Shown in pieces: positions 894 to 54,520 of a stretch of 64,000 nucleotides of DNA. Source of the stretch: Marsupella aquatica. Lineage: Eukaryota; Plantae; Marchantiophyta. The notes under the pieces are model-generated. The model was not told the origin of the DNA. It saw only the letters and a program-made list of their open reading frames with translations, and ran no database searches. The stretch lies in contig OZ316898.1 in the NCBI GenBank assembly GCA_973895155.1, forward strand, positions 13,546,330-13,610,329, given 5' to 3'. Both the position numbers and the translations under genes were made by a program. Numbering within the stretch: position 1 is the first letter of the stretch; each line of letters begins with the position of its first letter.

Positions 894-1299
894 TGTCACA
901 CCATTCTAGGTAGTGTTAGAGTGTATCGTACTATCTAGATCCATATGTTTGATATATGTGCTATATGAGTCGATAAAGTTCCGTTAGGTTTGTATGAGAG
1001 AATAGTTCTCTCTTGTGTGGTGGCTATGGTGACAAAGAGCTCTCTCTATGTAGCATGGATTCCTTGAGTGCAAGGTGCATTGGCTCGACATATGTGTGTG
1101 ATCGGATCGGACGAGATTGAGTGCATTTTGGCGTCGATCGTGGTTCGATTCTATTGAGATTATTGTGGGTTTTGGACATGTGTGGACATGAGTTACACTT
1201 GTATTTCATTCTCTTGTGTTTGTGATGTGGCAGTGTGACTATTTCTGGATGTCTTTGACAAGCAATGTATGTTGTGTAGCGATGTGTATGCGCATGACA
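894..1299 (+). mobile_element. Solo A+B terminal repeat of the DNMT-carrying Gypsy family (diverged copy)
   Basis: Begins TGTCACACCATTCTAGG and ends CGCATGACA; homologous to 38832-39298 with substitutions and a ~50-bp deletion; flanked by 4-bp direct repeat ACTC (890-893, 1300-1303). Confidence 0.9.
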
Positions 1300-16690: not shown

Positions 16691-17390
16691 GCGGGCCGAG
16701 GAGGTATAAGCGGAGGCAAGACCTCAAAGGACACTTCCTCAAGGCAGGACCGTGAGCACCCTGGCCTGGCGCGCTCTATGTACCTGTACTACTGCTGTAC
16801 CAGGTGGCACCTTCCTTCCATGCCCGATGCCACCATCCATGGATCGTGCCAGGGACTGGATCAGTGGACCTTAAACTGTTTGAAGAATTGCAGTACAGTA
16901 CCTGGACCACCGAGGCTCAAAGGAGAGTACTACGGTAGTCCACTGCTCTATCGTAGTCCACCTCTCTACATTAGGGCATCTCAAACGTGCTGTTTTCCCC
17001 TTTTTGATGGTTTTTTTTTTTTTCACAATTTGCCTTTGTGAAAAATTTGTGCCTGTAACCATGCCCGAAGCCCAATTTGTTTTGGGCGAACATAACATAA
17101 TGCAGAGGGTTTTCTGGTCAAGTGAGCACCAGCAATTTTTGAATGGGAGCCAATAATTCTTGAAAGGTGCTGATGCATATTGCACGAAGGGATTTTTGTT
17201 GCAGATGCTGGTATGCTGCCCAAGTTGCCAATGGTCAGGTTTACAAAACTGCGGGGTTTGGGTCAGTGACCCAATACACAATATTCTGGTTGCAGGAAAC
17301 CTCTGCGAAGGAGCTGATTTGCCCTAGTATGGTACTGTAGTTAGGTACAATGATAGACTTGATGGGCCTAGTGTTTATTAAAGGGTCATA

Positions 17391-17719
17391 TGTCACACCA
17401 TTCTAGGTAGTGTTAGAGTGTATCGTACTATCTAGATCCGTATGTTTGGTATGTGTGCTATATGAGCCGATAAGGTTCCGTCAGGTTTGTGTGAGAGGGT
17501 ACTTCTCACTTGTGAGGCATTGAAAGGTCATCTTTCAATGTTGAGCCTTGGAGAGAGAGGAGCTTGAGTGTGGCTATGGTGACTGTGAGCTCCGCTTGTG
17601 TAACGTGGATTCCTTGAGTAGTGCAAGGTGCGTTGGCTTGACATATGTGTGTGATCGGATCGGTGCGGGATCGATGGGGTATTGTTGACCGGGATCGTTG
17701 TGCCGATTGTATGGAGATT
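17391..17719 (+). repeat. Split repeat A1 (329 bp)
   Basis: Identical by eye to A2 at 38832-39160. Confidence 0.95.
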
Positions 17720-17731
17720 ACATTGAAAGAT
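17720..17731 (+). promoter_or_regulatory. Putative self-priming primer-binding site
   Basis: ACATTGAAAGAT directly after A1 is the exact reverse complement of ATCTTTCAATGT at 17530-17541; no TGG-type tRNA PBS present. Confidence 0.6.
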
Positions 17732-19055: not shown

Positions 19056-21633
19056 TTGGTAGCAGTCAGCAGTGCAGCTTCAGACAGTGATTCTGATGAG
19101 GACTCAGTGACCAGTTCTCCTCATCATCAGGTGGTTGCCCCTTTGTTGTGGGATATGGACGAGATGTATGGGGCTACAAAGGGCCCACGACGATACTCTG
19201 GTGCAGTTGGCACAATTGATCTGGATGACTTTATCCAGGAGTTTGATACGTGGTGCAATATGCAGACATTGTGTAACGCCGCATTGTTTACCCCTTTCAT
19301 GGCATGGAAGGGATTATTTCAGCATTTGAAGGGGCCACCCATGGATGACTACCATGAGTTTCGGAAGGCTCATTTGGTTGAGATTGAGGCATGGAGGCAG
19401 CATTGTCGCCTAATTACGTGTCCATCACCTATGGCACTAGTGCGGCTGCCCAACCCATTGCCACAGCTGTTGCCTCTTCTAGCAGCACTAGCCAGAGTGG
19501 CACACCATCCACCAGCAGCACTCCAGCAGCATCCACCGCTACTCCTGCCGGTGTGATTGTGACTGGAATTGGAGTTGCGCCAACATTTAACCCTGTGGTG
19601 GAATTCTTTGAGGTACTGAAGCAGAACTATCAGGGTGTGAGAACTGATAAGTTGAAGGGTCTCCAGGAGTTCCAACGCAAGACTGGAGAGCCTACGTGAG
19701 GCATACACACGTATGCGTAGATTGATCACTGTCACCAAGGGAGTGACAGAGGCTCAGGCAGTCCAGTTTTGGTATGCAATTATGGACGAAGAATTGCAAC
19801 GCAGAGTGAGAGATGTCACTCTGCTTAGGGATGCAGATCCCACATTAGTAGTTGTTTTCACCCTTTCTGAGCGCATTGAGCTCAATATGGTGAATGAGAA
19901 GGTGGTGACTTCTGGATTTGCCAAGGAAGCACCAAAGGCTGCATCTACATCCACACCACAACCTACTGCACGGAAGAGCCAGAGGGAGAAGCCTACTACA
20001 CGAGAGTCTACCAGCCAGAGACCTATGCCCTCTTATGCTGGACAACAGTCAGGATGTTGGACCTGTAGTGGGGATCATGCACAGAGATATTGCCCAGATC
20101 ATAGAGGATCAGGGGGAGCATCAGCGCCTGATCAGAGACAGTGTGATCACTGTGGAGCTCCTGGACACACCAAGGATAGGTGTTTCTCACTCCACCCTGA
20201 GTTACGGAGAGGAGGATCCCGTACACATGATCAGGGAAGAGGAGGAGGAGGTAGAGGTGGTGGACGTGGTCGTGGCATGCCACATATAGAGAGACAGGGA
20301 GGTGATGTTGCCCCTGCTGTAACCATAGATCCAAAGGATGCTAAGATTGCTCAATTGGAGCAACAACTAGCTGCCATGGCTAGTTCCCAGGTGAGACCTA
20401 CTTCTGGTGATGGGGCATCAACATCGTATGGACCTTCCACATCCCATGGTCTTTCCACATCTTATGGAGCTGATGGAGACCTTGCCACCATGGGATTCAT
20501 GTGTGGCACTGCACATATTGATGCATCAGCAGCTTTGACACGTGGGGCAGCCAAAGCTCTTGAGCCCCGAGGAGCAGTAGTGGAGTTAGATCCACAAAGG
20601 GGGGATGCATGTCGACAGACAAAGCTTCCTCAGTCTTTTACATTGTCAGAGACAGTTCAGACTGCCTCTATGAACCGGGTTCGGATAAACCCTGATGTGG
20701 GTAATTTGGCAAAAATCAGGTAGTGATGCAGCAGGGATGACAGGTACCTTGCTGGGGGCGGCTACTGCCATGGTACGCACCCCATTATTTTCAGTGACAG
20801 ACATGCTAAACTTGGGAGTTGGTCATACAGAAGTGTTCAGATTGGCAGCTACACTCTGTGAGGACACTCCAGTTGTTGCTTCCCATGCAGAAGCAGCTTG
20901 CAGTGTTGAAGCAGTGAAGACCATGCCACCTACTGCTACTAGTCAGACATGGCATGCAGCAGCAGCGAGATTGGTGGATTTACCAGCACGCCCTGCATTT
21001 GAGAGGACTAGGTTTAAACCTAGTGTTGTGTCATTGGATAATCGGAGTGGTATCTTCCGATTAGTTGGGCCTTTTGGAGCAGTATACCAGCCGGAGAGAG
21101 TGTTACTGGATACTGGTGCTCAGCCCTTGATGTTGGGGAAGTCTGCCATACATGGATTGGGATTGCATCCAGAGGTTTTGGAGAATTGTCCCTTTCCCAT
21201 TCAGACTTCATTGGGGGGACCTACACCTACACAGTGTATCACCAGGAGATCACTTGATTTGAGGATTCAGGAAGGTCATACCACAGATAGCTCACAGATA
21301 CAGGCGCGAGCTATTCTGACTAAGGCAGAGTCATATGATGTGTTGGTGGGATGTACAGTGCTCTACCCCATGGGATTTATTCTTGATTTTTGGGAGGAAT
21401 CAGTGTCATATAGACCTGATTGGCAGTCAGGAGATGCTCGATTGAGCAAATTGCTAGTGAGATTTAGTGGACCTGTGGGAGGCCCTAAATCCACACCATT
21501 GTCTTTGGCAGCATTCAGTGGTGTAATTGCTGGACCTGATGATTTGATTGAGGGTAATGCGCATGCAGCCGATGTTCCACCATTGGAGGAGTCTCATGAG
21601 GAGCACTGTACATCCCACCAACACATCACATGA
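19056..21633 (+). pseudogene. Element 1 gag and aspartic protease (frameshifted, stops)
   Basis: Zinc knuckles CWTCSGDHAQRYC and CDHCGAPGHTKDRC; protease VLLDTGAQP. True start probably slightly upstream. Confidence 0.85.
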
Positions 21634-21849
21634 CTCTGCCTTAGTCAGAATCCTGTTGGTAGTGTTGTGCCACCAGTGTGGGGCACTGCACAAGCCTTGC
21701 CACAGGTAGCAGCATGATTGGTACATGATGCATGGCGTCATGCTTTTACACCACAGTCAGGAGCAGAGCAATCTCTTGCAGATGGACTTGTGACTCTTTC
21801 ATCATTGGATACCACTCCTATTGCTTGGCAATATCCACTGGAGGGTGTT

Positions 21850-22790
21850 TGTTGGATCTTTTTGGTGGGATTAGCACTGGATTGGCTGTTGTTCTTCAGG
21901 CAGGAATTCCTGTGCGTCGTTATTTGTATGTGGAGTCAGATGAGACAGCACGAAGGGTCTCATTGCGACATGTGGCTATGTTGGTGGATAGATATCCACA
22001 ATTGCTGCCAGTGGATGCTGTTCGTGGTTATCAGCATGCACTACCTACTGATATTTCATTGCTGGGGGCAGATCATCTGCATCATGTTGGCCCCATTGAT
22101 TTGGTGATTGCTGGTTGGCCATGTCAGGGCCAATCTAGAGCTGGCGTTGGGCATGGACTTCATGATCCACGCTTTGCATTGTTTTGGGAGATGTTACGGG
22201 TGCTGCGTCATCTCCAACTACATCAGACACAGTCTCCAGCATACATTTTGGAGAATGTGCCATTGTTAGGTGATGATCGTAGTCAGATTGTTGCCAGTGT
22301 TCACCAGGTAAGGTCTTGGATTGGACCTGCTGTGTTATTGGATGCTGCACGTGTGGGTTCTTGTGCACATCGTCCACGCTTGTGGTGGACTAATTTGATC
22401 CCATGTGAGGTGCTGAAGTGAACATTTGACAGCATTCCACGCTCACCAGCCTTAGTGGTGGATGATATTTTGGATCCAGGGCGTCGTGCACAGGGTGTGA
22501 CCCAACCTGATAGACCTCCATTGGCAATGGTCAATGCAGTTGGGTGCCCACGTTGTGCATTACCCACTCTTGTAAGCCACTCTGCTTCATATGCATTCAG
22601 AGCAGGTGGCCCTGGACTTGTGTGGGACACAGCTCTCCAGCAGTTAGTGGAACCTACTGCTGATGAGAGAGAGTATGCTATGAGATTTTTGACTGGCACC
22701 ACTGTAGTTGCCTTTGTGTCAGAGGGTTTGCGGCGCCAGGTTCTTGGTCAAGCAATGGACCTAAATTGTTTGACTTGGATTATCAGCTTG
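21850..22790 (+). pseudogene. Element 1 C5-cytosine DNA methyltransferase domain (DNMT3-like)
   Basis: Motifs in canonical order: I LLDLFGGI, II YLYVESD, IV IDLVIAGWPCQGQS, VI YILENV, VIII HRPRLWWTN, IX EREYAMRFLTGTT, X RRQVLGQAM; one in-frame TGA at 22419-22421. Confidence 0.92.
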
Positions 22791-23129
22791 GGAGTAGCTG
22801 AACAGTTGCGGATGCGCTCTGTTGGAAATACTGATTGTCCCTTGGTGAGCTTGCGGTCCACTAAGACAGTACTGACCACAGCTAGGGGCGAGCAGACAGT
22901 CCATGGACCTATGGCAGGATTGGCCAATGGTGGACAGATTGTTGAGCACGAAGGGACTGCTCAATCTACTGCTAAATAGCAATCATCGGCTATATCTTCT
23001 ACCCTACAAAGAGATATTAGGGATTTGGTGGAGAGTTGGGAACCACAGCTTGGCCCTAAGTTGACAGGGGAGGAGAGATGTCGCATGCATCGATTCCTGA
23101 AGAGTTACTAGAATTGTTTTGCATTTAGC

Positions 23130-24539
23130 ATGAAAGATTTGGGGACATTAAAGGGTCCTGGTATTCAGATTGAATTGGCTAGTGATGCGCCAATCTTTCG
23201 TAGGTCGTACCGTTACAGTGACATGGAGAGAGCTCCGATTCAAAGTAGAACTCAAGATTTGTTGGAGGCTAGATTAGTGGAGATTTCATATGGGGAGTAT
23301 GCATCTGCCACAGTGATGCCAGCCAAGAAGGATGTGCATGGCAATTACACAGATAGGCGCATGTGTGGTGATTACAGACCCATTAATCGCCAGACAAAAT
23401 CTGATAGATATGCCATGCCCACACCTGAGGAGATCTTTGATGCTGTGGGGCATGCAAAGGTTTTCAGTTCATTGGATCTGAGGGCAGGGTACCATCAGCT
23501 TTCAATTAGGCATGCTGACAGGTCCAAGACAACATTCTGAGGGATTGATTCTTATGGCAAAGATCGTTTGTATCAGTGGTTATTCTTACCATTTGGGTTG
23601 AAGAATGCACCAGCTGAGTTCCAGAGAGTCATGGATCGAATCCTTGCAGGTTTGGATTTTGTCAGATGTTATATTGATGATATTTTGGTCTATTCTTCTA
23701 CTGTGGAAGAACATCAGCAGCACTTGCAGACTGTGTTGGAGAGATTGAGAGCACATGGGTTGAAGCTCCATCCTAGCAAGTGTAAGTTCTTCCAAGACCA
23801 GATTGAGTATTTGGGCCACACTATATACCCAGGGGGATTGGGTGTACAGCAGACTAAAGTGGAGGCCATTACACAGATTCCTTGTCCTACTGATGTGAGT
23901 AGAGTTCGTGCATTCTTGGGATTGGCGAGCTACTACAGGAGGTATGTTAAAGGATTTAGCCAACTTGCTAAACCTTTGACCATACTCACTAAGTTGGATC
24001 AGGAATGGATTTGGGGTGATGACCAGGAGCATGCCTTTCAGGAGTTGAAGCAAAGGTTGGCATCATCCCCTATTTTGAGAAGACCCATTTCAGGCAGACC
24101 ATTTCAGCTACACACTGATTGGAGTGGAGTAGGACTTGGAGCAGTGCTGACTCAGAAGGATGATGAGGGGAATGAGTTTGTTGTGGCTTATGCCAGTAGA
24201 TCAAACAATTCAACAGAGGCTAAGTATAGCTCTTATGAGGGAGAGTGTTTGGCAGCAGTGTGGGCTGTTGCACACTTTTGTTGCTACTTGTTTGGTAACC
24301 CCTTCACCTTGATCACTGATCATCAGCCTCTTAAGTGGTTAATGGAGTCTGACAAGCTTATAGGGAAGCTTGCACGATGGGCATTGTTGTTACAGGAGTA
24401 TGATTTCCAGGTGGTGCATAGGCCTGGAAAAGTGAACTTGGATGCAGATGGATTAAGCCGCAATCCATGTACCAGTCAGCAAGATGAGACTGGAGCCAGA
24501 TGGCATGATGAGTCAGATAAGGAGATGGTGCCAGGATGA
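23130..24539 (+). pseudogene. Element 1 reverse transcriptase and RNase H
   Basis: RMCGDYRPIN, LDLRAGYHQ, LPFGLKNAP, YIDD; RNase H TDWS...YEGECLAAVWA...TDHQPL...DGLSR; TGA at 23538-23540. Confidence 0.95.
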
Positions 24540-25870
24540 CATGCATCTGCCTTTCTTTGTTGGGTGCCAGTATACAATGGATCTGTGGACTTTACCTCAT
24601 TGGATGGAGTGGATGATGAGTCTTCAGATGTGGATGTTGGTGAGGTAACTTTTGGACAACAAGATATTCACAATGATGTGAGAGTGTTGGAATATCTGCG
24701 CTGTGGTTCTATTGTTGGCAGTGTTGATGCCAAAGAACATGACAGGGTTCTACAAAGAGCCAAGAGGTTTCGATGGGAGGGAAACCATCTTTTGAGAGTA
24801 CTGCATGATGGTAGGGTGTTGGTGGTACCAAAACCATCACAACGAGTACATTTGATGCGACATGCACACGAGGAGTTGGGTCACTTTGGTGTGAAGCGCA
24901 CTTATAGCTTGCTGCAGACACAGTATTGGTGGCGTGGTATGCACACTCATGTCCAACAGTTGATAGCTAAGTGTGTGGTATGCGATAGAGTGAGAGCATT
25001 ATTTAATGCTCCCATTCCCCAGTTGCACCCGTTACCGATCATGGGTTTGGGATATCGTTGGAGTTTGGATTTTGCTGGTCCATTACCTCTTACCCAACGC
25101 CATAATCGGTATGTTTTGGTCATGGTGGAGCACTTCTTCAAGTGGATTGAGCTAGTGGCGTTGCCAGATAAAGCCAGTGGAGGAGTTGTTGCTACATTTT
25201 TGGATCGCGTTGTCGTGATTTTCTCTTAAGTTATAAAAAAATTGTTTGTTTTAATATGCTATAGATTATATAAGTAATTTAGTAGTTAGATTATTAAATT
25301 TAAACTTTATTAAACTTCTTTAGCTATATTAACGGACTATAGTAGTTCCACCAATGCATATGAGTAGTTCCACCAACTACAATAATATTCACCAACGCAT
25401 AGTAGTTCTACCAACGCACAGTAGGTTCACCAGCGCATAGTAGTTCTACCAACGCACAGTAGGTTCACCAACGCATAGTAGGTCCACCAACGCATAGTAG
25501 TTCCACCAACGCATGATAGTTCCACCTACTAAAAGTAGTTTCACCAACTATGAACAGTACTAGCACACTCTTAGGTATTAGATGTTTGACACTTGGCCTT
25601 CATCCAAGTGCTTGGGCTTGATCCATGCCCTCTTGGTGTGCACTATAAATAAAGTGGTGAGGGGCACTCTCCCCTCATTCCGCAGTGTTTATCATTCAAG
25701 GGTGTGAAGCTCTTTTGTGCCTTGAACATAGTAGTGGGGCGTCCTTTGGCCCGGATAGCAAAGGAATGAGTGGTAGATTTATAGATGGGACCTTAGGGAA
25801 TAAGGTTTCTTTGGGAATATAGGGGTGGGGCGTCATTTGGCCCGGATAGCAAAGGAATAGGAGAGCCATC

Positions 25871-26086
25871 ATGAATCCAGGAGAGAGAGTTATCCCTGAT
25901 CTTCCCCTTCGTAATCCGTTTTTGATTATAGTTTATCTTTTAGACAAACCATCTATGAGGCAATATCTAACCTATCATTTTGGAGCTCAGTTTGCAACTG
26001 CTGTTATGGTTTCTAACGAGCCAATAATATACCCAGTGGTGTCGTACCGAAAGGAGTGGGAGTGCATCATCTTTGTCTTTTATTGA
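25871..26086 (+). CDS. LTR-encoded microprotein type A (71 aa, unknown function)
   Basis: Ungapped similarity to ORF 37805-38014 (13/48 identities: K..RQ...HFG..F...V..S..P...P...Y...W). Confidence 0.7.
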   Translation: MNPGERVIPDLPLRNPFLIIVYLLDKPSMRQYLTYHFGAQFATAVMVSNEPIIYPVVSYRKEWECIIFVFY

Positions 26087-26090
26087 AATC

Positions 26091-26296
26091 ATGGATCTGA
26101 ATAGGAGTCCGGATGATATTCCTGTTTCATTTTCTCTTGGAGATATTAGGATCATATATCGTAAGAAAACTAATTTCCGTGATGTGTTGGTCCGCAAGTA
26201 TGGTGAAGTAGGGTTTAATAGTATTTTAGTTTCACCTGAACCTTTCTTATACCCACTACCCTTGTTACTAGAATTATCATTTTGATTTTAGTGTAG
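26091..26296 (+). CDS. LTR-encoded microprotein type B (MDLNRSP..., ~65 aa; probable 1-bp deletion near C-terminus)
   Basis: Similar to ORF 36533-36736 (shared MDLNRxP; 14/36 identities in core). Current frame stops at 26285; restoring the A seen in the 3' LTR copy gives PFLIPTTLVTRIIILILV*, matching the homolog's hydrophobic tail. Confidence 0.7.
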
Positions 26297-26372
26297 AACT
26301 TATGAGCATGCAAGGTTAACTTCAAAAGAGCCAACATGCTCTTGCCAGAAAACAAGGTCACCCGGACATAAG

Positions 26373-26390
26373 TGGCGACCATACTGGGGA
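26373..26390 (+). promoter_or_regulatory. Element 2 primer-binding site, tRNA-Arg-like
   Basis: TGGCGACCATACTGGGGA 4 nt after the 5' LTR; resembles the complement of plant tRNA-Arg 3' ends. Confidence 0.7.
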
Positions 26391-26513
26391 ACCGCTGGAT
26401 TTGGAAGTTAGTTTGTGCATATTTGAGTTCTAATGGATGAAGAGAAATATGGGTTGGAACTTTGAGTTCTTAACTTGTTTATATTATTAAGTCAAGAGGG
26501 AAGAATTGCAATC

Positions 26514-29078
26514 ATGGGAACTGAGATGAATCCAACTGACATGGAGAGGTTTTCATCCTTGATTGCTGCTTACTTACATGGAATGAAGGAGAAGGAGATG
26601 GAGGAGAACAAGAAGAAGGAGTTGCTTGGTAGGACCACGAAGTACCTATACTCGGTTCTTACCAAGCAAGGAGAATTTGATGGGCGAAATGTAACCAAGT
26701 ATCTCAAGGGGTACTGGACGGAGGCTACAATTCATAAGATTGATGCAGAAGTTGCAATCAAGGAGTTTGTATCTTTAGTAGAACCTGAACTCAAGGGAAT
26801 TGTTACTACCTTGATAGATGGAGCTACTGGGGAGAAAGCATGGAAGGTCTTTGAGTTGAAGATGAAAGAAGAATTTCAGCTTGAAGATCCAGATCGAGTT
26901 ACTCAAGCATCTTTCCTTGATTGGGTGGCCGATAGAAGCAAGAAGTTGGGACCTCAAGAACTAATAAGGGAGTTTACGAAGAAGTTCAATCAGCCTCCTG
27001 AGATTGGTTCTGAAGTTATCAAGGTACAGAAGGCTACTTTACTTATCCGAGCTGCTGATGAGAAGCTTCAAGACGAGTTGGAGCTTGCTCTGGAATTGAT
27101 GAACCGAAGTCGTGGAGCCAGTCCACCAACTTGGGAGGAGATTGAGATTGCTGTGCTTAGGGTCAGCCAAAAGCATAGAAGAAAGAAGCTGAGTCATGAA
27201 GGTGCTCTACATGCGGTTGCACCTGTGACTTCTATGAGGAGAATGGAGAAAATAGAGTCAACAACTAGTAGGGGTGAGAAAAGCATGGACAAAATGGATG
27301 AGTTATCTGAACTCATGAAAAATCTTACCATTCTTGCCACCCAAGCCTTCGAGCAGATGGGAGGAGGTGCATCAAGACTAGCGTCAAGAGGTGGTCCAGG
27401 AGCCGGGAGTTCCATTGGCGGAGCAAGGAGTTGGAATTGTATTTGGTGTGATAGTAAGGAGCACTCAAGGCGTGAATGTGGGGAGCTTTCTGTTGCTCTG
27501 AGAGAGAGAATAGTCAAGTTCATTGATCATGATGGCATAAGAAAGCTTGCTTATCATGATTCAGGAGAGCTTATTCCAGTAAACACAAACAAGGGCGGTA
27601 TGAAGGTGTTGGTGGAGAGAAGAATGACTGAACATCATACTTCAGCCATTGCAGGAGCTTTTGGAGATCAGGATGAGCATGAAGCAGATGTTTACACCCT
27701 CTTTGGGAGTTCTTCGTCAATAGAGACAGACAAGAAGAGACTAGCAGAGTTTGTAAGGAGGAAGTCAGATTGGAGTGATCCAATGTTGATCTCTTCTTTC
27801 ACTGCAGAAGTGGGATCTCTATGGGATTCTATGGTAGAGGAGAAACGAAAGTCATCGGAACCTTTGGAAGAACGTGCCAAAGGAAAACAAAAGGTTGAGC
27901 CTGGACCCTCTATTTTGCAGCCATCATCAAGAGTCCCAACAAGGAGGAGTGTTCGATTTGAAGATAGAGGAAGTACAACAAAGGAGCCTACTTCGACTCC
28001 TTCATCCTCAAAGGAGATGGAAGTGGTAAAAAAAGAGAAGGTGGAAAAGAAAGGACCTGGTTGGGTCCTTGGAAGAGATGTTGAGCAGCACATTGCGTAT
28101 GATCAAGTTGCTGAGAAGTTTTGGAAAGCGGAGGTGAGCGGAGTCACCAATGAGGATTTTTTTGCTTGCATGAACTCCAAGGCTCAAGATGCATTACTTG
28201 CAAAAGTGAAACGAAAATGATTTTACAAGGAAGGACCTCATGCCTTGGGAATGGAGGTTTTTTCTGATGTTGATGAAGATGGAGAAGGTTCAATTGTTTC
28301 TCAAGCCAGTGTGGAGTGTGAAATGTATCAAGTGAATGCGGAGAAGATCCCTAGACCACAGATGCTAGGGTCTTCAACAAAGGAAGTTCCTGAACCAAAG
28401 ATGTCAGGAGTTGAGGTATTGGAGAGGTGGAAACCATTGGCGAAAGCAACAACAGGATTTGCAGTGACCCAGGATATGACAAAAATTAGTCGTGAAGAGG
28501 TGCTCAAGGCCTCACAAAGTGTGTGGGTCATGTGTGCTTCAGCTATGAAGAATCTTGATTCAGGAGACGACAAGGAGTCCATCTTGGAGCCGTTTTGGGC
28601 AAGAACTTGGTCAGTTGTGGAGGTAGAGCTTGTAGGAATGGAGGGCAAAGCTCGAGCATTGTTTGACACAGGATCTGAGGTGAATCTAATGTCAAGAAGC
28701 ATCTATGATCTTGGGCAATGGATGATTGATTATGATACTCAATGGTCTGTCAACTCAATCAATCGTTCAAAGAATATGCTTTGGGGAGGATGCCCTGGAG
28801 TATCAGTGAAGGTTGGCCATGTGATAGAACCAACTAACATCTTTGTGCATGATAGCTTGCCCTATGATCTCATTCTAGGGCAGCCTTACATTATTGAAGC
28901 TCGAATGGAGTACAAGGTCCTACCAGATGGCACTCATATGACAAAGGTAAGGAGTCGGGATGAATTGCGGGTTATCCAATTTCCTGTAGTGAAACCTGGA
29001 CATTGGAGGAATCGGAAGGAGTTGAAAGGACCTGAACCCAAGGAAGGAAATGAGGATTTCTGGAAGGCGTCTCGTTAA
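26514..29078 (+). pseudogene. Element 2 gag-protease (in-frame stop at 28218-28220)
   Basis: CCHC knuckle CIWCDSKEHSRREC; protease ALFDTGSEVN...DLILGQP. Confidence 0.88.
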
Positions 29079-32000
29079 GCAATGCGGGAGGGCGGGGCGC
29101 CATCGCCAATGACCCGTTGGTGACTTGGAATGTGAATAGTTTGTTGGCAAGCTCATTTGAAGGTGAAAGCTTGCATTGTCGAATTTCTTATGTGAAAGTG
29201 TGTGAAGCTACTAAAAAATTCAAAAAGAAAATTGCAAGGATTGAGGATACTATGCAAATACATGGATTGCTAGAGGAAAGTGAAGAGATTGAAGGCCTTC
29301 TAGATGAAGAAGGAGTAGAAGTGTTTTTGAAAGAAATAATTGAAGGTCTTTCAGAGGGAAAGCTCATATGGAAATCAATCATGAGCTGTATGGCGAGTTG
29401 TCTCAATTTGTTGAGGTCAACACCAAGTACAAAACAGTGGAAAAGAAAGTGAGACCAGCAGCAATTCCTTTACCTTTGGATGCTAGGGAGATTTTGGAGA
29501 AGGCAGGTAAAGAGACCAGTCTTAGAGATCAGACTAAGATTGGCCACAAATTCACGAAGAAGACCCTTAATCAACTAAGGATTGGTGATGATGGGTTGCT
29601 GACAAAAGAAGAGAGAGAAGAGTTTCAGCAAATGATTGGTGAGCATGGTAAGGCTTTTGCCTTTTGTCTTGAAGAGATGGGATGTGTGGATCCTAGTGTT
29701 GTTACTCCTATGGTAATTTTCACTGTCCCGCATGTTCCTTGGGACTTGAAACCCATTCTAGTGCCCAAGGCTTTGTTACCTAAACTTATTGATCTATTAA
29801 AGGAGAAGCTTTCCACTAGGATTTTGGAAAGAACAGATGCACCTTATTCTAATCGTTGGTTTACTATTCGTAAGAAAAATGGTAAACTTAGATTTATTCA
29901 GGACATGCAACCACCTAACAAGGTTACTATTCGCAATACTGGAATAGGACCTATAGTAGATGAATTTGCAGAAGAATTTGCTGGTAGAGCCATCTATTCA
30001 TGCGGTGACCTCTATTCAAGCTATGATCAGTTTCAGTTGGCTCAGAGTAGTAGAGATATCACCACTATGAGGACACCTTTGGGGCTACTTCGCATGTGTA
30101 TCTTGCCTCAAGGGGCAACCAACTCGGTGGCTCACATGCAGAATGCCATGAATAAGGTATTACACCGTTTCATTCCAGAGAAGACACAACCATTCCTTGA
30201 TGATATGCCAATCAAGGGATGTTTGGAGACAAAGAAAGATGAGACTATACGTGAAGATGACTTGCGACAATTTGTATGGGAGCACATTCAAGATGTGAAA
30301 GCAATCTTGAAGAGGTTGATTGAGGTTGGGCTCACTCTTTCTGGTGAGAAATCTTCATTTGGGCTTCGTGAAGTCCTAATTGTAGGACAAATTTGTGGAG
30401 TTGATGGGAGGAAGCCAAATGGAGGAAAAGTAGATGCAATCAATCAGATGAAAGATTGTAGGACAACTTCGGAGGTGCGAAGGTTCCTTGGTGCTTGCTT
30501 GTTCTATAGGATCTGGATTCCTCACTTTGCACATATTGCTGATCCTTTGGACGGATTATTGAGGAAGAATGTGCACTTTGTTTGGACAGAGGCACATAAG
30601 GAGGCTATGCAAAGGTTAAAGGAGGCCTTACTTAGCCCCCTTGTTTTACGTCCCTTATGCTATGATGGAAGACCCATCATTGTCACTGTAGATTCAAGTC
30701 CTGATGCTGCTGGATGGGCGGTAGGGCAGGATGATGAGGAGGGGAGAAGATTTGCAGCAAGGTTTGGAGCTAAGATCTTTTCAGCAAGGCAAAGGCATTA
30801 CCCTCAAATCAAGCGAGAGTTGTGGGGAGCAAGGATAGCCTTGTGTCAAGAAAAAGTCTACTTGATTGGAGCACAAGTCATTCTTGAGACTGATTGTTTA
30901 CCACTTTTAGGGATGATTGCTAACTGTGATACTCCAGACATTGCTATGCTACGTTGGATAGCTTTTATTAGGATGATCAACCCCGAGCTTCGACACATTG
31001 CTGGAAAAGATAATCCAGTAGCAGATATGCTTTCAAGAGCCCGCTATGATCAGAATGAAGTGGAGGCAGTTCAAGTGATGAATGGAGAGTTTGAGGTCTT
31101 AACATTTCGAGATGAGCTCTATTTTGGAGAGTTGCTCTTGATTGGAAGGTACCTTAGTACTCTTCAAAGGCCTGTTGAAATGATAGAAGAGAAGTTTCAA
31201 CAATTACGAAAGAAGGCTTACAAGTTCATGCTCAAGGATGGTGTTTTATGGAGAAGGTCTTTGAAGAAAGGACATGTTCCTTGTAGAGTTCTTGATACAG
31301 ATGAAGAGAAGAAGAGAGTCTTATGGGATTCTCATGATGCTGTTGAAGCAGGACATCGAGGAGTTAGAGCTACCTATGAGCGGGTTCAAAGGTGGTACTG
31401 GTGGTCAGGCATGTATGTGGATATAAAATCCTATGTTGGATCTTGTGAGAGTTGTCAGTATTACTCTAAAGTTTGGTTTAGAGATGAACTTAATCCCACT
31501 AGTCCTCTTTCTTTACATTTTCAGTGGGCAGTAGATGTGGTGCACATGCCATGGGGAATTAGGGGGGGCAAAGTACCTTGTCCTTGCAAGAGAAGATTTA
31601 TCTTCTTATGTCGAAAGAAGGGCTTTAACCTCTAACACTACAGAAGCAGTATGCAGGTTCATACTTGAAGACGTTATAGCACGTCATGGTTGTTTTGTGC
31701 AAATGAGAGCAGATAGAGGAGAGCTGAATTCTGAAGAGGCTACAGAATTTTTCGACTGGTTCAACATCAAGCTCAAACTCACTACTGCCTACAACCCGGA
31801 AGGAAATGGAAAGATTGAGCGAGGGCACCCACCGATAGTGAATGCCTTGGTGAAATCTTGCCAAGGAAAACCATCACTTTGGCCCAATCTTCTACCATTT
31901 GCTCTTTTGGCAAATCGAATGACATGCACTACCACAACAGGAATTACGCCTACCGAATTAGTCTCTGGACATTTGCCTTTGATGCCGATTGAGGAAAATG

Positions 32001-32456
32001 TTCAGAGTTGGAGGATGATTGAATGGCAAGATAGAATCTCCCGAGAAAAGTTGCTGGAGCGAAGGATTGAGCACTTTAGCCAGACCAAGGAGAAGATTGA
32101 TGAGGCATTACTAAAGCTAAAGGAGGCTCGTGAGAAGAATAAGGAACGATTTGACAAGACCCATCGTTTGAGACCAATTCCCATCCAGAATGGAGATTGG
32201 GTCTTGATCTATGAGGGAGGGTTGGAACAACAACATTCTACTCTGAAGAAGTTTGCACATCGTTGGAGAGGATCATTTGTGATGGAGGAGGTTCGTCCTA
32301 ATGCAACATATGTGGTAAGAGAACTTGATGGAGCAATTCATCGCAATCCCTATGCAGGGAAGTGAGTGAAATTATTTAAACGACGAACTCGATTTGTGAC
32401 AAAGGAAGAGTTTGAACCCGACGACTATGGGGCTTTAGATGAAGAAGACATGTAGC
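29054..32456 (+). pseudogene. Element 2 pol (RT-RNase H-integrase), frameshifted
   Basis: GKLRFIQD, GDLYSSYDQ, LPQGATNS, FLDD; RNase H TVDSS...KRELWG...ETDC...ADMLSR; HHCC; WAVD...RADRGE...GKIERGH. Confidence 0.92.
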
Positions 32457-32508
32457 GATTCTAGGTGTGGTGCATACCGGAGGATGCACAGATTTGGTAG
32501 GGGTGATG

Positions 32509-33312
32509 TGTCGTGATTTTCTCTTAAGTTATGAAAAAATTGTTTGTTTTAATATGCTATAGATTATATAAGTAATTTAGTAGTTAGATTATTAAATTTA
32601 AACTTTATTAAACTTCTTTAGCTATATTAACGGACTATAGTAGTTCCACCAATGCATATGAGTAGTTCCACCAACTACAATAATATTCACCAACGCATAG
32701 TAGTTCTACCAACGCACAGTAGGTCCACCAGCGCATAGTAGTTCTACCAACGCATAGTAGGTCCACCAACGCATAGTAGTTCCACCAACGCATGGTAGTT
32801 CCACCTACTAAAAGTAGTTTCACCAACTATGAACAGTACTAGCACACTCTTAGGTATTAGATGTTTGACACTTGGCCTTCATCCAAGTGCTTGGGCTTGA
32901 TGCATGCCCTCTTGGTGTGCACTATAAATAAAGTGGTGAGGGGCACTCTCCCCTCATTCCGTAGTGTTTATTATTCAAGGTTGTGAAGCTCTTTTGTGCC
33001 TTGAACATAGTAGTGGGGCGTCCTTTGGCCCGGATAGCAAAGGAATGAGTGGTAGACTTATAGATAGGACCTTAGGGAATAAGGTTTCTTTGGGAATATA
33101 GGGGTGGGGCGTCCTTTGGCCCGGATAGGGTAGTGGGTATTAAGAAAGGGTAGTGGGTATTAAGAAAGGTATCTGAACCTTTCTTAATACCCACTACCCA
33201 CTACCCTTTTACTAGAATTATCATTTTGATTTTAGTGTAGAACTTATGAGCATGCAAGGTTAACTTCAAAAGAGCCAACATGCTCTTGCCAGAAAACACG
33301 GTCACCCGGACA
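32509..33312 (+). repeat. Element 2 3' LTR (804 bp); microprotein region deleted and replaced by a hairpin
   Basis: Colinear with the 5' LTR except about 25850-26235 is missing; inverted repeat at 33148-33199. Confidence 0.9.
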
Positions 33313-33585
33313 GCGTACTCAGTCATTTTGGAGCACCAGCTGAGGTGTTGGCTGATCAGGGAACTGAGTTCCGTGGAGAGTTTGAGAGTTTGTGTGAACA
33401 AGCTTTGATTGATCATCGTACTACCTCTCGTGATCATCCTGAGGCAGATGGATTAGCTGAGAGAGTTGTGCAAACTGTGAAGAGAGGATTGCGTAAGTAT
33501 GGCTTGCAGGTTGGTCATCTGGGAGATTGGGATCTCCAGCTACCTTGGTTAGCTATGGGCTACCGTTTCAGTCGGCAAGCATCAC

Positions 33586-36140
33586 TGTCACTTGCCTATC
33601 CAACGATTAATACTTGCAAACCGTACTTTTCTTCGCTTAAACCGTTGGTATCGTATTACGGGGTCGTGGAGGGACGCTATTTGGAAGATTTTCACACCTA
33701 AGGATGAGTATGTTTGATTTCGCTCCCGGAAGTGTACTTTTTGATCAAGTCTACTGACTGGTCTCTCCGTTTTTGATCAAGTCCAAGGGACTGGTCCTAC
33801 TATCTACAACTCATGCCCACCGGGTGAGTGCTGTCACCACCCCCCTCTCCTGGGCAAGCATACAAACGTTTACAATAAGGTTTGAACACTAGTGACCAGG
33901 GCAAATGTTTCCACAACGAAACCGACCACATGCACTGGGGAGGAAAACAAACCACACAAGCAACCACAAGTGACACACAAAATATTGAAACCTCAAGCCA
34001 AATCCATATCTCTTGGTGTTTCCCGTAACACATGCAAGGACAACCCGGCCTCCTGCCGTCTGCCCAACTCCTGCCTCCCGGGGACAAGTGCTACGTTCTC
34101 CACCTCACTACTCTGGCTTGAACTTCTCCTAATCGGTGCGCTACTCACAAAAGCTACTCCAAAGCATCCAAGCACTACGCTGAGTTCCCCCCTTACAACT
34201 TCGGGGCTCTCCCCCGAAATACCGAAAAACCACACCAAAGCACCCATCGTGGGATCACAACGATGGCGGCTACCCTAGCGGCGCCGCTAAAACCCTGCAC
34301 TAAGAAACCCCTAAACTAAAAGCATGCGGCACACACATGCTTCTAAAACCCTAAACTAACTATGGGACCGACGGTGCCTTCGACGGTGCCCCAACATCGC
34401 TCCGTGAACCGCGAAAAATGCAAGGGACCCCACAATGGCCGAAACTAGGTGCCCTTCCACTTTCACTTCTGAGTTCACCCCTGGATAGCCCTCCTCCTCC
34501 TGATCATGAATCACTCAACCGCTCTTGAAACGGACATCGGACGACCAAGTTATGGCCGTTTTAGTATCCCGTAAACCTAACTTCGTCGGGCCCTAACTTG
34601 CTCATCCTGGCTTCGTTTGAGGAGCGCCGCCTCTTGTTGGAATAAGCTCCGCGAGCTCTTTCCATCAAGCCCGTGAGTGACCCCTCAAAAAAAAGTTGGA
34701 AAGTCAAGGGGCCGTACAACCACGTCCGTACGACCACCCTAGTCCTCCTCATCCTCACTCATGGTGCCATGGCTTGAGCCCCGTGAGTTGGTCTCCTCAT
34801 CAGTTCTCCTCCTCCTCACTCACGGTGCCCTGGCTTGAGCCCCGTGAGTTGGTCTCTCCTCATCACTCTCCATTGGAGTGGTATGCTAAACAAGGACTCA
34901 CTTGAGTCCACCACCGGTCCGTTGTAAAAGGAGGGGGCCCCTATAATTGTCGAAACTAGAATTTTCTCAGAATTCACTTCTGAAAACATATCTGAGGAGC
35001 CCTCTTCTTCCTGATCACGGCTCCGTAAACGGTGCACAAAACGGAGGTCAAACGGCCAAGATATGGTCGTTTAAGTTTTCACGGGGCACCGTCTCCCTCC
35101 GTTTCGTCCGTACAACACCACGGGACCCCGGTTTTGCAAAAACATGGATCACGGTTTCCCCGTATGTGCTGCTACCTCCTCCTTCTCTTGCAAAGCCGGG
35201 ACCTCCTTCCGTACGGACATCCGTACGGCCTCAAAACTCCCGTATTCTAAAAAAAAATGCGATCGGTTGTATCTCCCCCGTCTTAGCTCCGTTTTGGCCG
35301 TGTGACACATCGTTGGATTCAGCTCGGCAAGCTCTTTCCAACAAGCTCGTAGACTCTTGATTTTGAGATGGTCGAAAATCTGATGTTCGTACAACCAGGG
35401 TCCGTACACACATTGAAAGCAAGCACAAGAGGGAAAGGGTTTAGGGTTTAGGTATGGATGGAAACCCCACAAGTGAGAATAGAGAAAAAGGGAAGGTGTG
35501 AGGGCCCCTTCTACGGTGGGGAAGGGAAAGAGAGCAAAAAAACATGTGAGGACCGCACAAAGGGTGAAGGGGAACACAAGTGTGGGAACCCCTTCCTTCT
35601 AAGGGCCCTCCCACCATCACTACTCCAAGATTGTCTAGTTTGCCGTTTTACGGGCATTGAGGTCCCTTGAGATGTCACTGTTTGATATAGACCTAAAATC
35701 AACTAGAAAACCTCAGTTTCGCATGGGGCTCATTAAGGGCTTCAAAATGAATCCAAACATGATCATGTTTGGAATAGTACTAGCGCAGCAACGTCTGTTT
35801 TAAGTTTCAATGTTTTCTATATTTTGGTCATTCTTCCCGTTTTGCGCCTTACGTGGAGCCTCCGACCAGCCCCCACCCCTCCAAGATGCCCACACCTTGC
35901 CTCCAAGTCCCTGGGCTGCCTTGTGGCCTCCTTGTACCCCCTCAATGGTTCCCTTGTCATCCATCACCGCCCGACACCCCTCTCAACTCCGGCCTCCGGT
36001 TGTCGCATCCATTTCTTAGAACTAACAAAAATAAAAAATTTGAAAATCCAAACACTTTTACTACACCTACTTGTCTTTCTACTTATATACGTAATTATAA
36101 GTCATCACTAAGTTACTACCGGGTTTGGGGCCCTGTCACA
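33586..36140 (-). mobile_element. Nested solo LTR (element 3, 2555 bp), probable Gypsy type
   Basis: TG...CA ends; 5-bp TSD ATCAC (33581-33585, 36141-36145); no coding domains. Orientation inferred, not certain. Confidence 0.82.
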
Positions 36141-36532
36141 ATCACTTGCATCCTTCTCACCTTACTTTTTGCTCTATGGTAGAGAGTCAGATTTGCCAAC
36201 AGCTATTCGTCGTGATGCTGCACTAGTTGTGAACTTGGATGATCCTGATGTTTGGGTCAAGGTGTGTTCAGAGAGAGCACGGGTATTTCAGAGAGTGATG
36301 CCCATAGCTTTAGACAACCTTGCCATTGCCCAACATCGTGATACTTTGAGGTATGCCACTATTCGTGGAGGAGGTTACCGTGCAAGCATTCGACGATTTC
36401 ATCCTGGTGATTATGTTTATTTGCAGCAGACAGCACCCACAACACTTGATGTGACCGCTGTCATGAAGTTCATGGGCGATGTCGGGAAAGCCCGGGCTTC
36501 TGTCTGTCGGAAGAACAATGCGCTACGACGTG

Positions 36533-36736
36533 CTAATAAAACACTACGATCATTATCCGACATCGTTCAATTGTCATGGGAACAACGAATGGAATCGGGG
36601 ATGAAATAATCATGGTATATGCCGACTCCCCAAAGTTTCTGATGATGAAGGCTCGAAACTCAGTTTTTTGGCGACATATCACCTGAACATTACAATCTAT
36701 ACTAAAATTAGGCCTAGGAACTCTATTGAGGTCCAT
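36533..36736 (-). CDS. LTR-encoded microprotein type B (67 aa, MDLNRVP...)
   Basis: Homologous to the ORF starting at 26091; intact ATG-to-stop frame. Confidence 0.7.
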   Translation of the reverse strand: MDLNRVPRPNFSIDCNVQVICRQKTEFRAFIIRNFGESAYTMIISSPIPFVVPMTIERCRIMIVVFY

Positions 36737-37804
36737 CTTGTAATTCAGAATCACGGTACAAGCTTCTTGAACATAGGAAATTCACCTACGGTTGTCAATT
36801 TCCTTTGTATCATATCAAACAAGCCAAGTATTTTCTATCCTATCATCCCTCAAAGGTTCGAGTCAAAACTCTATCTCCATCAACAGGTACAAAGAAAAAT
36901 GGTGGACCTATCTAGATTGCAGGCTACGAAGACCCTGTCACCGTCACCATACTATATATCTCACTTAAAGATAGATATACCCTCAAAATTTTTTCCTAGG
37001 CATGACATAGCTTCTTATCTATTTCCAGGAAAAAAATTTAAATATGCATCTTATTCTAGGAAAATATTATAAGCAATATTCAAACTCAGAAAAATATGGT
37101 TCTATTTGAGCATAATCTAAACCTTCAAGTCATCATAACTTTCTAGCATTATACCAAAATCAAGTGATTCCAAAAGCAAACTTGGTGTGCTCATCAAGGT
37201 GATCAAAGTTAGAATACTATTTCCCTAAGAAAAATATATCATAATGATTTCCTATATAGTACAACCTTTACTATTTAATAACTTTCTAACAATGTCACAT
37301 CTCTAGCTTCCAAGCACATTCTATGAATTCTTATACTCCCCACACTATTCTTGCACATAAGTTTGGAATAACAAAGAAACTCACCATGCCACCCCCAAGG
37401 GGCAGGCCTCTTATTTATAGTGCTTTGGAGGGGTAATGACTCACCCCTTTGGTACACATGGTCCAATAATATTTGAACATGTAAACAACAAGGTGTTTGG
37501 ATGCTATTGGGCATGTTTCCATGCGTATCCTCCTTTCGACACCTAATTGGCCATGTGTTTGATTCTAAATGGACATGCAACCATGCAAGGCCTTTTTACA
37601 CATGTATGCCACGTATCCCTATATATTTTGCTATGTCATAAATTTAGTGGAAAAGTAAAGCCCCCTAGTAGGCCTATACTCTAGTTTATGATAATTATTC
37701 ATATAGCCCACAATACTTTATTTAGAAGTGCTTTGTCGTCACTCTAACCCATCATAGGATGCCTAAATTTTGTAACTAGGCATGATGAATCACCAAACTA
37801 GCTA

Positions 37805-38014
37805 TTATGTTAAAATATAAAAACATATAACCCACTTATGTGTATATGTAAGCGTGGGTAAGAACAAAGGTTGAGCGGATTCTTCAACCTCCCGAAGGAA
37901 TCGCACACCAAAGTGATGCACGATGAATTGCCGAAAATGAACTTTCTCCATAACCTGGAACTGAAATTCAACGTGATTTGGAAATCCAACTGGCGCCCCG
38001 TGCACTCCATCCAT
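37805..38014 (-). CDS. LTR-encoded microprotein type A (69 aa)
   Basis: Homologous to ORF 25871-26086; intact ATG-to-stop frame. Confidence 0.7.
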   Translation of the reverse strand: MDGVHGAPVGFPNHVEFQFQVMEKVHFRQFIVHHFGVRFLREVEESAQPLFLPTLTYTHKWVICFYILT

Positions 38015-38682
38015 TGTTGCTTTCTTGCCTTAGAGTTGTTGCCTCCTCCTCTCGTTCCTCGTTTCTTTATGAATCGGCAACCCGCTACAAGCATAGGTAC
38101 CCGACTTATGGTCTTATTTGTCATCTTAAGTCGAGATGTTGCAAACCCAAAATATACCCGTGTAACTTAGGTGTACTATTTGCACCAAAGTTACCACGAC
38201 ACCGCAGGCCGGACAATCTTACGTGTGCGTGAAGTGTTGCCTTCTGGTGTCCTGATGTTGGAGGGACGCGATGGTATGGTTTGGAAGGATCATGTGCGCA
38301 ACTGTGCACCATGTCACCTTCCCAACATTGATGGTACAGTAGATCCAAGCTTGGCACATGTTCGTGCTGGCTTGAAATGTATGTTGTGTGGATCTGCTCA
38401 GGGAGCAGCTACTATGTTGATTTGTGATAAGTGTTCTAGAGGATGGCACATGTCATGTTTGACATCACCATTGCAGGTGATTCCTAGTGGATCATGGTTG
38501 TGTCCTCAGTATCGGTGAAGCCGACTAGTTATCATTTGTGTTCTCTTGGCAGATATGGATTGCAGGTAGGTGATCGATGGGGCTCACTTGCACCCGACCT
38601 CCTGATCTTCACACCTAAAAAGGTGTATATCAACCTTGTAGAACTCATGGCTAGCTAGAGTTAGGGGACCTTACTCCCAGCT

Positions 38683-38691
38683 AGGGGGGCG
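38683..38691 (+). promoter_or_regulatory. Element 1 polypurine tract
   Basis: AGGGGGGCG directly before repeat B1, downstream of the polyprotein stop. Confidence 0.7.
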
Positions 38692-39298
38692 ATTGTGGGT
38701 TTTGGACATGTGTGGACATGAGTTCCACTTGTATTCCATTCTCTTGTGTTTGTGATGTGGCAATGTGACTATGTGTGGATGTATGTGACAAGCGATGTAT
38801 GTTGTGTAGCGATGTGTATGCGCACGATAGCTGTCACACCATTCTAGGTAGTGTTAGAGTGTATCGTACTATCTAGATCCGTATGTTTGGTATGTGTGCT
38901 ATATGAGCCGATAAGGTTCCGTCAGGTTTGTGTGAGAGGGTACTTCTCACTTGTGAGGCATTGAAAGGTCATCTTTCAATGTTGAGCCTTGGAGAGAGAG
39001 GAGCTTGAGTGTGGCTATGGTGACTGTGAGCTCCGCTTGTGTAACGTGGATTCCTTGAGTAGTGCAAGGTGCGTTGGCTTGACATATGTGTGTGATCGGA
39101 TCGGTGCGGGATCGATGGGGTATTGTTGACCGGGATCGTTGTGCCGATTGTATGGAGATTATTGTGGGTTTTGGACATGTGTGGACATGAGTTCCACTTG
39201 TATTCCATTCTCTTGTGTTTGTGATGTGGCAGTGTGACTATGTGTGGATGTATGTGACAAGCGATGTATGTTGTGTAGCGATGTGTATGCGCACGACA
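38692..39298 (+). repeat. Split repeats B1 (38692-38829) - GC - A2 (38832-39160) - B2 (39161-39298)
   Basis: B1 and B2 are 138 bp with 2 differences; A2 equals A1. Confidence 0.95.
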
Positions 39299-53081: not shown

Positions 53082-53083
53082 TC

Positions 53084-53156
53084 CTCTGCTCTCCTCTCCT
53101 CTCCTCTCCTCTCCTCTCCTCTCCTCCCCTCTGCTCTCTTCACCTCTCGTCTCTCC
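53084..53156. repeat. (CTCCT)n microsatellite in ALG9 5' leader
   Basis: Read directly; explains the spurious GEERR N-terminal extension of the ORF call. Confidence 0.8.
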
Positions 53157-54520
53157 AAGAAGCCCACAATTCCGTTCTTGAACCACTTTCTCCAGTTTCA
53201 GAACACGACGTTTCTGAATTAGGACTCTCCCACTCCAATCGCAAGTGTCAAGGAGGCCGGGGCTTCACTACAAATATGTTATGACATTTCAAGAGCAAAG
53301 TCCGGATCTATAGAACATCGAGAAAGAGGGAACGAAAAGGATCAATTATCACTTACTCGAGAGCAGTACAGTCTGTATGGAGAGTCACATAAGGCCGCCT
53401 CTCACCGGGACTATTTTTAAGGTTGTTTTACACTTGGGACAAAAACAGAGAGATATACTTAATGGACCTCGTTTCTCCCCCCATGTACCAAAACGTTTCA
53501 TTTTTCTCCTAAGCCACCTCCTGGCCCGGTACCATTTTGTGTCATAAATTATTTCACCTTGATTTTCAGTCCCTACAACACGGGAATTCCATGATTGTAG
53601 AACCCAGGATTGTTTACCATTGTTGGGTGTACATCCAACTACATAGCCTAAAACAGCTGAATATGAGTGGAGTGTCAAAACAGCATTTGGCCATGCAGCC
53701 CCCCAGTAAGAAATGGCACATCACAATTAGAATTTTAATAGAATATCTGCAAGTAGTCAGAGGTGTGATAGAAATTTTAGCCCAACCTCATCTGCAGGAT
53801 GTAAAATCAAAATAGACACACAAATATCATGGAGTGAACTGAACTGCTAAGTATGACATGGTTTTGTTCATTTGGGCAGGCTTTGGCACTGAACATTTTG
53901 AGTAAGGTTGGAGAGCGATAAGGTTTTCTAAGTGTGAACACTTTATATCTTTGTAGATGTATACCTCGCACACTTAATTTTGTGCTGTACATAGCATGAT
54001 TTTGTCCATTTTGGCAACTTTGGCGCCAAGCATCTCTATATGGCAGGGGAGGAATAATGTTTTCTAAGTGTGATGAAGGGGTCTCTGTATGCATTGTGCA
54101 CTAAGTGTACCATGCGTACATACTTTTGTGCTGTATACCTGGTTGTATAGGAGCATGGTTTTGTCCATTTCAGCAGGTTTGGCACCGAGCACCTTTGCAA
54201 GGTTGGGGTGAGATCATTTTTTCTAAATATGGGCTTTGAATACATTGTGCATGATGTGTATCATACATGCTTTCATCAAGTTTGGCTATCTTTGGTGCCA
54301 AGCATGTTTGTAAGGACAGGGAGGGTAATGCTGAGAAAATCAAAGTTTCCGCTAGGACGCCTCAAAGCCAAACTGTGGCCAAAAGTTACGGATTTATGGT
54401 CCATCCTGTAACTCTGTTATGAGAACTAGTTAAGGAATTTTAAAATGGGAGGAGGTAGCATTGACCCTCCCCACAAGGCATGAGTTACAACCTCACCTTA
54501 GTCTCATAGCATGTGCCAGT

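Follow-up and report, generated by a model that had tools for sequence, protein, structure and literature searches.

KnitGypsy-Dnmt3 of the alga Klebsormidium nitens, reported by de Mendoza et al. in 2018 (PMC5890265), is the closest described counterpart of the element analysed here. It combines Gypsy domains with an unrearranged, intronless Dnmt3-related domain that is under purifying selection and shares one open reading frame (ORF) with reverse transcriptase (RT) and RNase H, and its repeats are arranged in a DIRS-like order, A-coding-B-A-B. The same work described SymbioDIRS-Dnmt3, likewise a retrotransposon-borne Dnmt3 with split direct repeats, which has a tyrosine recombinase instead of a DDE integrase and is regarded by the authors as an independent capture. 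Its enzyme methylates CG in yeast, whereas the Klebsormidium enzyme gave no methylation there, a result the authors call inconclusive. The role of retrotransposon DNA methyltransferases (DNMTs) was left open in 2018, the hosts being hard to work with. In the full-text literature, with subscription papers and repeat databases outside its scope, this type of element was otherwise found only in a 2026 preprint, which names "streptophytes (Gypsy-DNMT3)", and in PMC12344493, which repeats "streptophytes and dinoflagellates", a wording that may include bryophytes by way of supplements. The available text of PMC6453930, PMC5410703, PMC12513842, PMC8557442 and PMC7192593 holds no land-plant report. 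Within the literature searched, retro-DNMT3 in print thus comes only from algal elements, as far as the text available goes, and the bryophyte family described below extends that range.

The window, that is, the whole 64,000-nucleotide stretch of Marsupella aquatica DNA that was analysed, contains at 17391-39298 a broken Gypsy element carrying a DNMT, with the domain order gag-PR-DNMT-stop-RT-RH-IN-PHD and all parts on the plus strand. Gag (19155..20723, +) is frameshifted and has two CCHC knuckles, with its start and motifs as in Marchantia Mp4g09160, and the aspartic protease region (20689..21633, +) shows LLDTG and a match to PF13650 (Asp_protease_2; E 0.0036) below the cut-off. Reverse transcriptase and RNase H (22980..24539, +; Pfam) are interrupted by in-frame stops at 23109, 23538 and 24537. 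The integrase is in pieces: the zinc finger and core start (24540..25210, +; Pfam), a second core piece 3' of a nested Gypsy (33313..33585, +; Pfam), a third piece that aligns to the relatives' contiguous integrase and has no Pfam match (36135..36460, +), and the C-terminus (38201..38515, +) with a PHD finger at 38378-38509 (PF00628, E 3e-10). Of the features that define Ty3/Gypsy elements, the gag-PR-RT-RH-IN order, the DDE integrase, TG...CA ends, a target duplication of the 4-6 bp class (here 4 bp), a primer-binding site and a polypurine tract are present; two full identical terminal LTRs, with the polypurine tract beside an element-ending 3' LTR, are not, a permuted repeat instead supplying A at one end and B at the other. 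No chromodomain was matched by Pfam at the integrase C-terminus, where the PHD finger stands instead, and no tyrosine recombinase family, the mark of DIRS, PAT and Ngaro elements, was matched by Pfam, an rve integrase being present instead.

Several other insertions and repeats were noted in the window. The nested Gypsy (25211-33312), which sits inside the outer integrase, is complete, has no DNMT, and has its own LTRs and 4-bp duplication; its RT is too divergent for alignment with that of the outer element. Two more insertions (~33586-36134 and ~36461-38200) interrupt the integrase, and no terminal repeats or protein families were found in them. The protease-DNMT linker holds a 51-bp inverted duplication (21313-21363 and 21601-21651). 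Farther along lie an ALG9-like mannosyltransferase (51309-53264, -) and an amidohydrolase (57336-59162, +), each one long ORF and apparently intronless, and a tandem array of ~62-bp units (56131-56487). The genes of the window are of plant type, and the Atlas cluster nearest to the ALG9-like protein has most of its occurrences in Streptophyta.

The methyltransferase domain (21846..22802, +) is broken in this copy by a frameshift at ~21845, immediately 5' of motif I, and by an in-frame TGA at 22419. The original prediction, made from the letters of the window, had held that a full set of C5-methyltransferase motifs survives here with catalytic residues intact, and all of these were located: motifs I, IV, VI, VIII and X follow one another in canonical order in a single plus frame from 21846 (DLFGG at 21855, PCQ at 22119, ENV at 22251, RPRLWWTN at 22371 and RRQVLGQAM at 22731). 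The PF00145 search proposed with it as a check gave a Pfam match above the cut-off (41.4 bits versus 22; E 1.6e-10). Its suggestion of a DNMT3 resemblance also held. A profile built from 12 relatives and searched against the PDB ranked DNMT3A first at 80 bits, ahead of DRM-type enzymes (42), M.HaeIII (39), DNMT2 (23) and DNMT1 (17), and all 31 Foldseek matches listed for an AlphaFold model of the domain (mean pLDDT 91.5) were DNMT3A, DNMT3B or DNMT3C, the top ones with TM 0.67-0.73. Judged by profile search and modeled fold, the domain is of DNMT3 type, with DRM, DNMT1, DNMT2 and bacterial enzymes all more distant, and because its motif order is canonical it is not a DRM. An Atlas feature search with the domain led to generic phage PF00145 clusters, and no alignment of the target-recognition loop of the window family to DNMT3A was obtained.

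Between the DNMT and RT lies the sequence TAG CAA TCA (22977..22985, +), a predicted readthrough signal by the motif definition in PMC3542737. A metagenome scan returned 71 loci, of which 18 short weak matches were left out and 53 (L001-L053) were analysed. Thirty-five of the 53, from about six lineages with duplicates included, have a recognisable RT start, and every one carries an in-frame stop 15-22 codons 5' of it (TAG in 27, TAA in 8), followed directly by CAR in 33; the remaining 18 have truncations, frameshifts or another architecture (among them L040, L045, L047 and L053, and the stop-free L049 and L050). The TAG at 22977 resembles decay and is nonetheless inherited, all 35 loci that could be scored having an in-frame stop between DNMT and RT. 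The layout is seen uninterrupted in L020, where 1369 codons of Gag-PR-DNMT are followed by TAG and 1047 codons of RT-RH-IN-PHD. RT sequences group the stop-bearing elements in a single clade (99), with the single-ORF relative P0178 as sister, and the rest of the enclosing DNMT-before-RT clade (98) consists of single-ORF elements; this RT tree is a FastTree, midpoint-rooted and without a DNMT-less outgroup, which does not settle the order of domain moves. Because the DNMT ends the Gag-PR ORF upstream of the conserved stop, the enzyme is probably produced at Gag level, before a predicted leaky stop. The earlier placement of the DNMT inside the polyprotein between protease and RT therefore stands as regards the Gypsy host and the flanking PR, RT, RH and IN, and is amended in that the domain ends the Gag-PR ORF before the stop and is not simply within Pol.

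From these features a life cycle is proposed, to which as a whole we give a rough probability of 0.55: a Gag-level DNMT3 ahead of a predicted leaky stop would be packed in the particle and methylate cDNA of its own element prior to insertion of a predicted circular form. Ribosomes would very likely halt for the most part at UAG-CAR-YYA, giving abundant Gag-PR-DNMT and a rare RT-IN fusion. Reverse transcription self-primed after A, with the plus strand primed at the tract before B, is expected with the same good confidence to yield linear B-A...B-A DNA. The linear ends would then probably join, with integrase cutting a single internal CA^GC-TG palindrome so that the circle opens to give A...B-A-B. 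Finally, and only somewhat more probably than otherwise, released or Gag-bound DNMT would methylate the extrachromosomal DNA, so that new copies are pre-marked and either tolerated as self or self-silenced. This own-DNA methylation follows what the authors of PMC5890265 proposed for algal elements.

Counting against the methylation step are the inactivity of the Klebsormidium domain in yeast, the unalignable recognition loop and the lack of any element-specific CpG loss relative to the DNMT-less neighbour. The CpG observed/expected ratio is 0.30 in the DNMT element versus 0.36 in the nested Gypsy, which is no stronger depletion, and depletion is weak or absent in L020 (0.55), L027 (0.70) and L050 (0.96). 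The absence of such loss would suit an enzyme that, with the same anatomy, acts after integration on chromatin (its own promoter, the site of insertion or rival elements), either directed by the PHD finger or free in the nucleus. A PHD finger is found on the integrase across the whole lineage, and bulk production would suit a diffusible enzyme; however, the finger belongs to the readthrough product and not to the DNMT ORF, and a position in the polyprotein favours packaging into the particle, as is established in retroelement biology. Action on chromatin is an unlikely alternative. As for the proposed dosage, it is not needed by the lineage as a whole, because the DNMT of chlorophyte relatives lies between RNase H and integrase and because DNMT and RT share one ORF in P0178, P0038, P0042 and L050.

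The circular step of the proposed cycle rests on the permuted repeats. Repeat A opens the element with TG (17391..17720, +) and has 0/330 differences to the second A (38832..39161, +; repeat comparison), and the first B (38693..38829, +) has 2/137 differences to the second (39162..39298, +), which ends in CA and was delimited by repeat comparison and contig divergence; the arrangement A-coding-B-A-B, as in DIRS-like split direct repeats, is found in both the window and L026. Target duplications of 4 bp (CATA, 17387-17390 and 39299-39302) flank the element. A predicted primer-binding site (17720..17731, +) adjoins A, and a predicted self-primer within A (17530..17541, +) is its 12-nt complement, equalled in 1 of 5000 shuffles; L026 has at the same place a pair of 17 nt that differs in sequence and is likewise complementary (0 of 5000). 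Such a complementary stretch after the repeat is the signature of Tf1-type self-priming (PMC6317226). At the other end a polypurine tract (38677..38692, +) precedes the first B, as the same tract does in relatives. With the primer-binding site after A and the purine tract before B, ordinary reverse transcription would therefore give B-A...B-A. That the inserted form instead starts at A and ends at B is confirmed by 4-bp duplications at the A start and B end of six insertions, namely the window element, a solo A+B remnant of the same family (894..1299, +; own duplication ACTC), L026, L017, L044 and L022, and by contigs that diverge directly after 39298 (20-44 per run) and before 38832 (11 in one run). 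The simplest reading of the A...B-A-B insertions is probably a two-repeat circle opened at one junction. The internal B|A junction (38826..38835, +), the predicted integrase cutting site, is a GACA-GC-TGTC palindrome in relatives, the window copy being one base off; it reads CA-GC-TGTCA in L010, L026, L027 and the distant L049 and CA-GT-TG in L020, and it is palindromic in most host copies. By established integrase chemistry, a staggered cut after each CA would leave integrase-ready ends. For retroviruses, integration from circles is a model that was rejected.

The same insertions could arise without a closed circle if a templated strand jump appended B to a linear end. The A|B joint is the same in the window's full and solo insertions, which is more exact than end-joining might give and counts against the circle step, and DIRS-1 cDNA is described as mostly linear (PMC7192593). 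On the other hand, the joint in L026 differs by one base, and A-coding-B forms are found (L015, L016, L017, L044 and L022/23), three of them (L017, L044, L022) with intact target duplications, as a one-repeat circle would produce; these forms may also reflect B-B recombination or assembly collapse. A strand jump appears unlikely beside the two-repeat circle. A few contigs of two runs start at 39156, six bases 5' of B, with unrelated flanks, and the ends of the L049 contig (1-133 and 11941-12073) overlap with one CA-GC-TG junction, which corresponds to a collapsed multi-copy assembly or a circle. The outer repeats differ at 2/467 positions versus 11/780 for the nested LTRs, an age difference that is not significant (p 0.15). 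The outer A repeats are identical despite many coding breaks and three nested insertions, such that the element was either copied while already defective or homogenised later.

Selection on the domain was evaluated by Nei-Gojobori dN/dS. The pair L020/L021 gave 0.125 for the DNMT at dS 0.26, compared with 0.08 for RT and 0.60 for the linker, and 11 other between-lineage pairs gave 0.10-0.23 at a dS of 1.3-2.1, near saturation, with two further pairs saturated. Comparison of dN/dS across copies had been named as a check in the original prediction, and these values correspond to purifying selection and are not near 1. Higher ratios, in five pairs of decayed Sphagnum-like copies (0.35-0.75) and in L004/L041 (0.44 at dS 0.05), are as expected from post-insertion decay. 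In aligned rows the catalytic residues are kept (Cys in 51/53, Glu in 51/54, the two Arg in 47/54 and 49/54). Conservation of PC, ENV, RxR and the SAM-binding motif argues against the proposal that the domain is retained as a nucleic-acid-binding or RNA-modifying particle component and not as a DNA methylase, as does the CG methylation by the Symbiodinium enzyme (PMC5890265). That proposal does draw on the inactivity of the Klebsormidium domain in yeast in the same study, and on the consideration that catalysis needs less than a Gag-level dosage, and is judged improbable.

The nucleotides around the stop bear on whether it is read through at all. UAG-CAR-YYA is the consensus given for type I readthrough in tobamoviruses (PMC3542737), and TAG-CAR-YYA is found in five lineages (the window, L020/21, L027/46/51, L041/42 and L004), in which the codon after CAR is TCA, TTA, CTA or CCA by lineage, so that YYA is constant at the nucleotide level although the encoded residue varies. 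The large Sphagnum-like group has CAA CCC after the stop, without the final A of YYA; this and the TAA in eight loci count against a leaky stop. The stem 3' of the stop folds well in three of five sequences (z -2.4 to -3.0; window -0.35, L004 -0.59), and no consensus structure was found in 10 aligned sequences, leaving the stem as a lead only. None of the nine junctions tested has a slippery heptamer or a shared ATG. Could the TAG instead serve as a splice acceptor, or terminate an ORF that is translated on its own? It fits YAG, and Ogre elements do splice between PR and RT. However, YYA at +4 to +6 is kept across four different codons, DNMT and RT are always in frame and there is no shared ATG, which makes splicing or separate translation very improbable and readthrough the preferred interpretation.

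Relatives of the element are numerous, and among 55 longer ones the 21 with organism names are all bryophytes (18 Marchantia polymorpha, 1 Calypogeia fissa, 2 Sphagnum). Among the best 120 of 260 near-length matches 11 are named, 10 of them bryophyte, which brings in M. paleacea and Riccia sorocarpa, and one with a bacterial MAG label; the latter, P0057, nests beside L020 in the DNMT tree and was taken as misbinning. Names of Klebsormidium, Physcomitrium, hornworts or vascular plants do not occur among the named matches of the 55 longer relatives, of those best 120 of 260 or of 39 long matches, and as the searches were word-limited this does not equal absence. Two of 39 long matches are named, both chlorophytes (P0188 and P0199; Scenedesmus sp. 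PABB004 and Chlamydomonas eustigma). In both, a related DNMT sits between RNase H and integrase and a PHD finger is also present, and in P0199 EC replaces PC; no chlorophyte hosts of such elements were found in the literature searched. Viral contigs gave 16 weak prokaryote-type loci only. In four public runs with near-identical DNA all 30 bins are covered, the DNMT as evenly as RT, contig depth not being copy number. The window element groups with bryophyte copies in both the RT tree and the DNMT tree, the latter a quick version with a long-branch prokaryotic outgroup, one row dropped and no host DNMT3. The DNMT is thus a family trait of bryophyte Gypsy elements with more distant chlorophyte relatives, and the expectation that the system reaches land plants was supported. 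That this copy alone picked up a piece of a host gene by chance, named at the outset as the refuting case and suggested by the broken state of the copy, is refuted by hundreds of relatives with the same architecture under purifying selection.

A wider proposal is more tentative, and as a whole we consider it less likely than not, and less likely than the life cycle above. It posits an old Gypsy lineage of green plants, spanning chlorophytes to Marchantia, in which a DDE integrase would insert an obligatory circle via the internal palindrome and a capsid-level DNMT3 would pre-methylate that circle, each new copy thereby being epigenetically marked, and in which the land-plant enzyme moved before a viral-type leaky stop for higher dose. 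If true, such a cycle of obligatory circle and pre-methylation is one not described for LTR retrotransposons. Several of the copies in Marchantia polymorpha have been annotated as if they were ordinary genes (Mp4g09160 and Mp8g17980 among them), and the presence of the family in this species makes the role of such enzymes approachable in a genetic model for which methylation mutants exist. Enzyme dosage is predicted by where the stop lies, and integration from circles becomes testable through the permuted ends. In practical terms, DNMT3 counts can come out too high when ORFs of this family are annotated in bryophytes, and the ends of A-coding-B-A-B elements will be misplaced by standard LTR finders.

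In summary, comparison with known systems places the window family nearest to KnitGypsy-Dnmt3, with which it shares the Gypsy domains, the intronless Dnmt3-related domain, purifying selection and the permuted repeats, a kinship that rests on anatomy as compared by description. The two differ in host, an alga versus a land plant lineage, and in that DNMT and RT, in one ORF in the alga as in the sister elements P0178 and L050, are here in the same frame with a conserved stop between them; the available text on KnitGypsy-Dnmt3 (PMC5890265) makes no mention of a PHD finger, self-priming, a junction palindrome or target duplications. With Tf1/sushi, Tcn1 and Tj1/Tosmo (PMC6317226; bioRxiv 2022.12.06.519325) the family shares self-priming and an in-frame stop setting Pol dosage, but those elements have a chromodomain, normal LTRs and no methyltransferase, and their stop is a TGA between Gag and PR, the position also given for Tj1 and Tosmo in the bioRxiv report, whereas the window family has its stop behind PR-DNMT and a PHD finger as C-terminal reader. 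The host plant DNMT3 and DRM (PMC6453930) have the DNMT3 catalytic family in common with the window enzyme, which is intronless, fused to Gag-PR and of a motif order unlike that of DRM. The tobamovirus signal, known from plant RNA viruses, is matched exactly in the five lineages named above and is off at the last base in the Sphagnum-like group. A Gypsy-borne Dnmt3 with permuted repeats was thus already known, and what this family adds, against the literature searched, is the conserved placement of the apparent leaky stop, the predicted integration from a circle and the extension to a model land plant.
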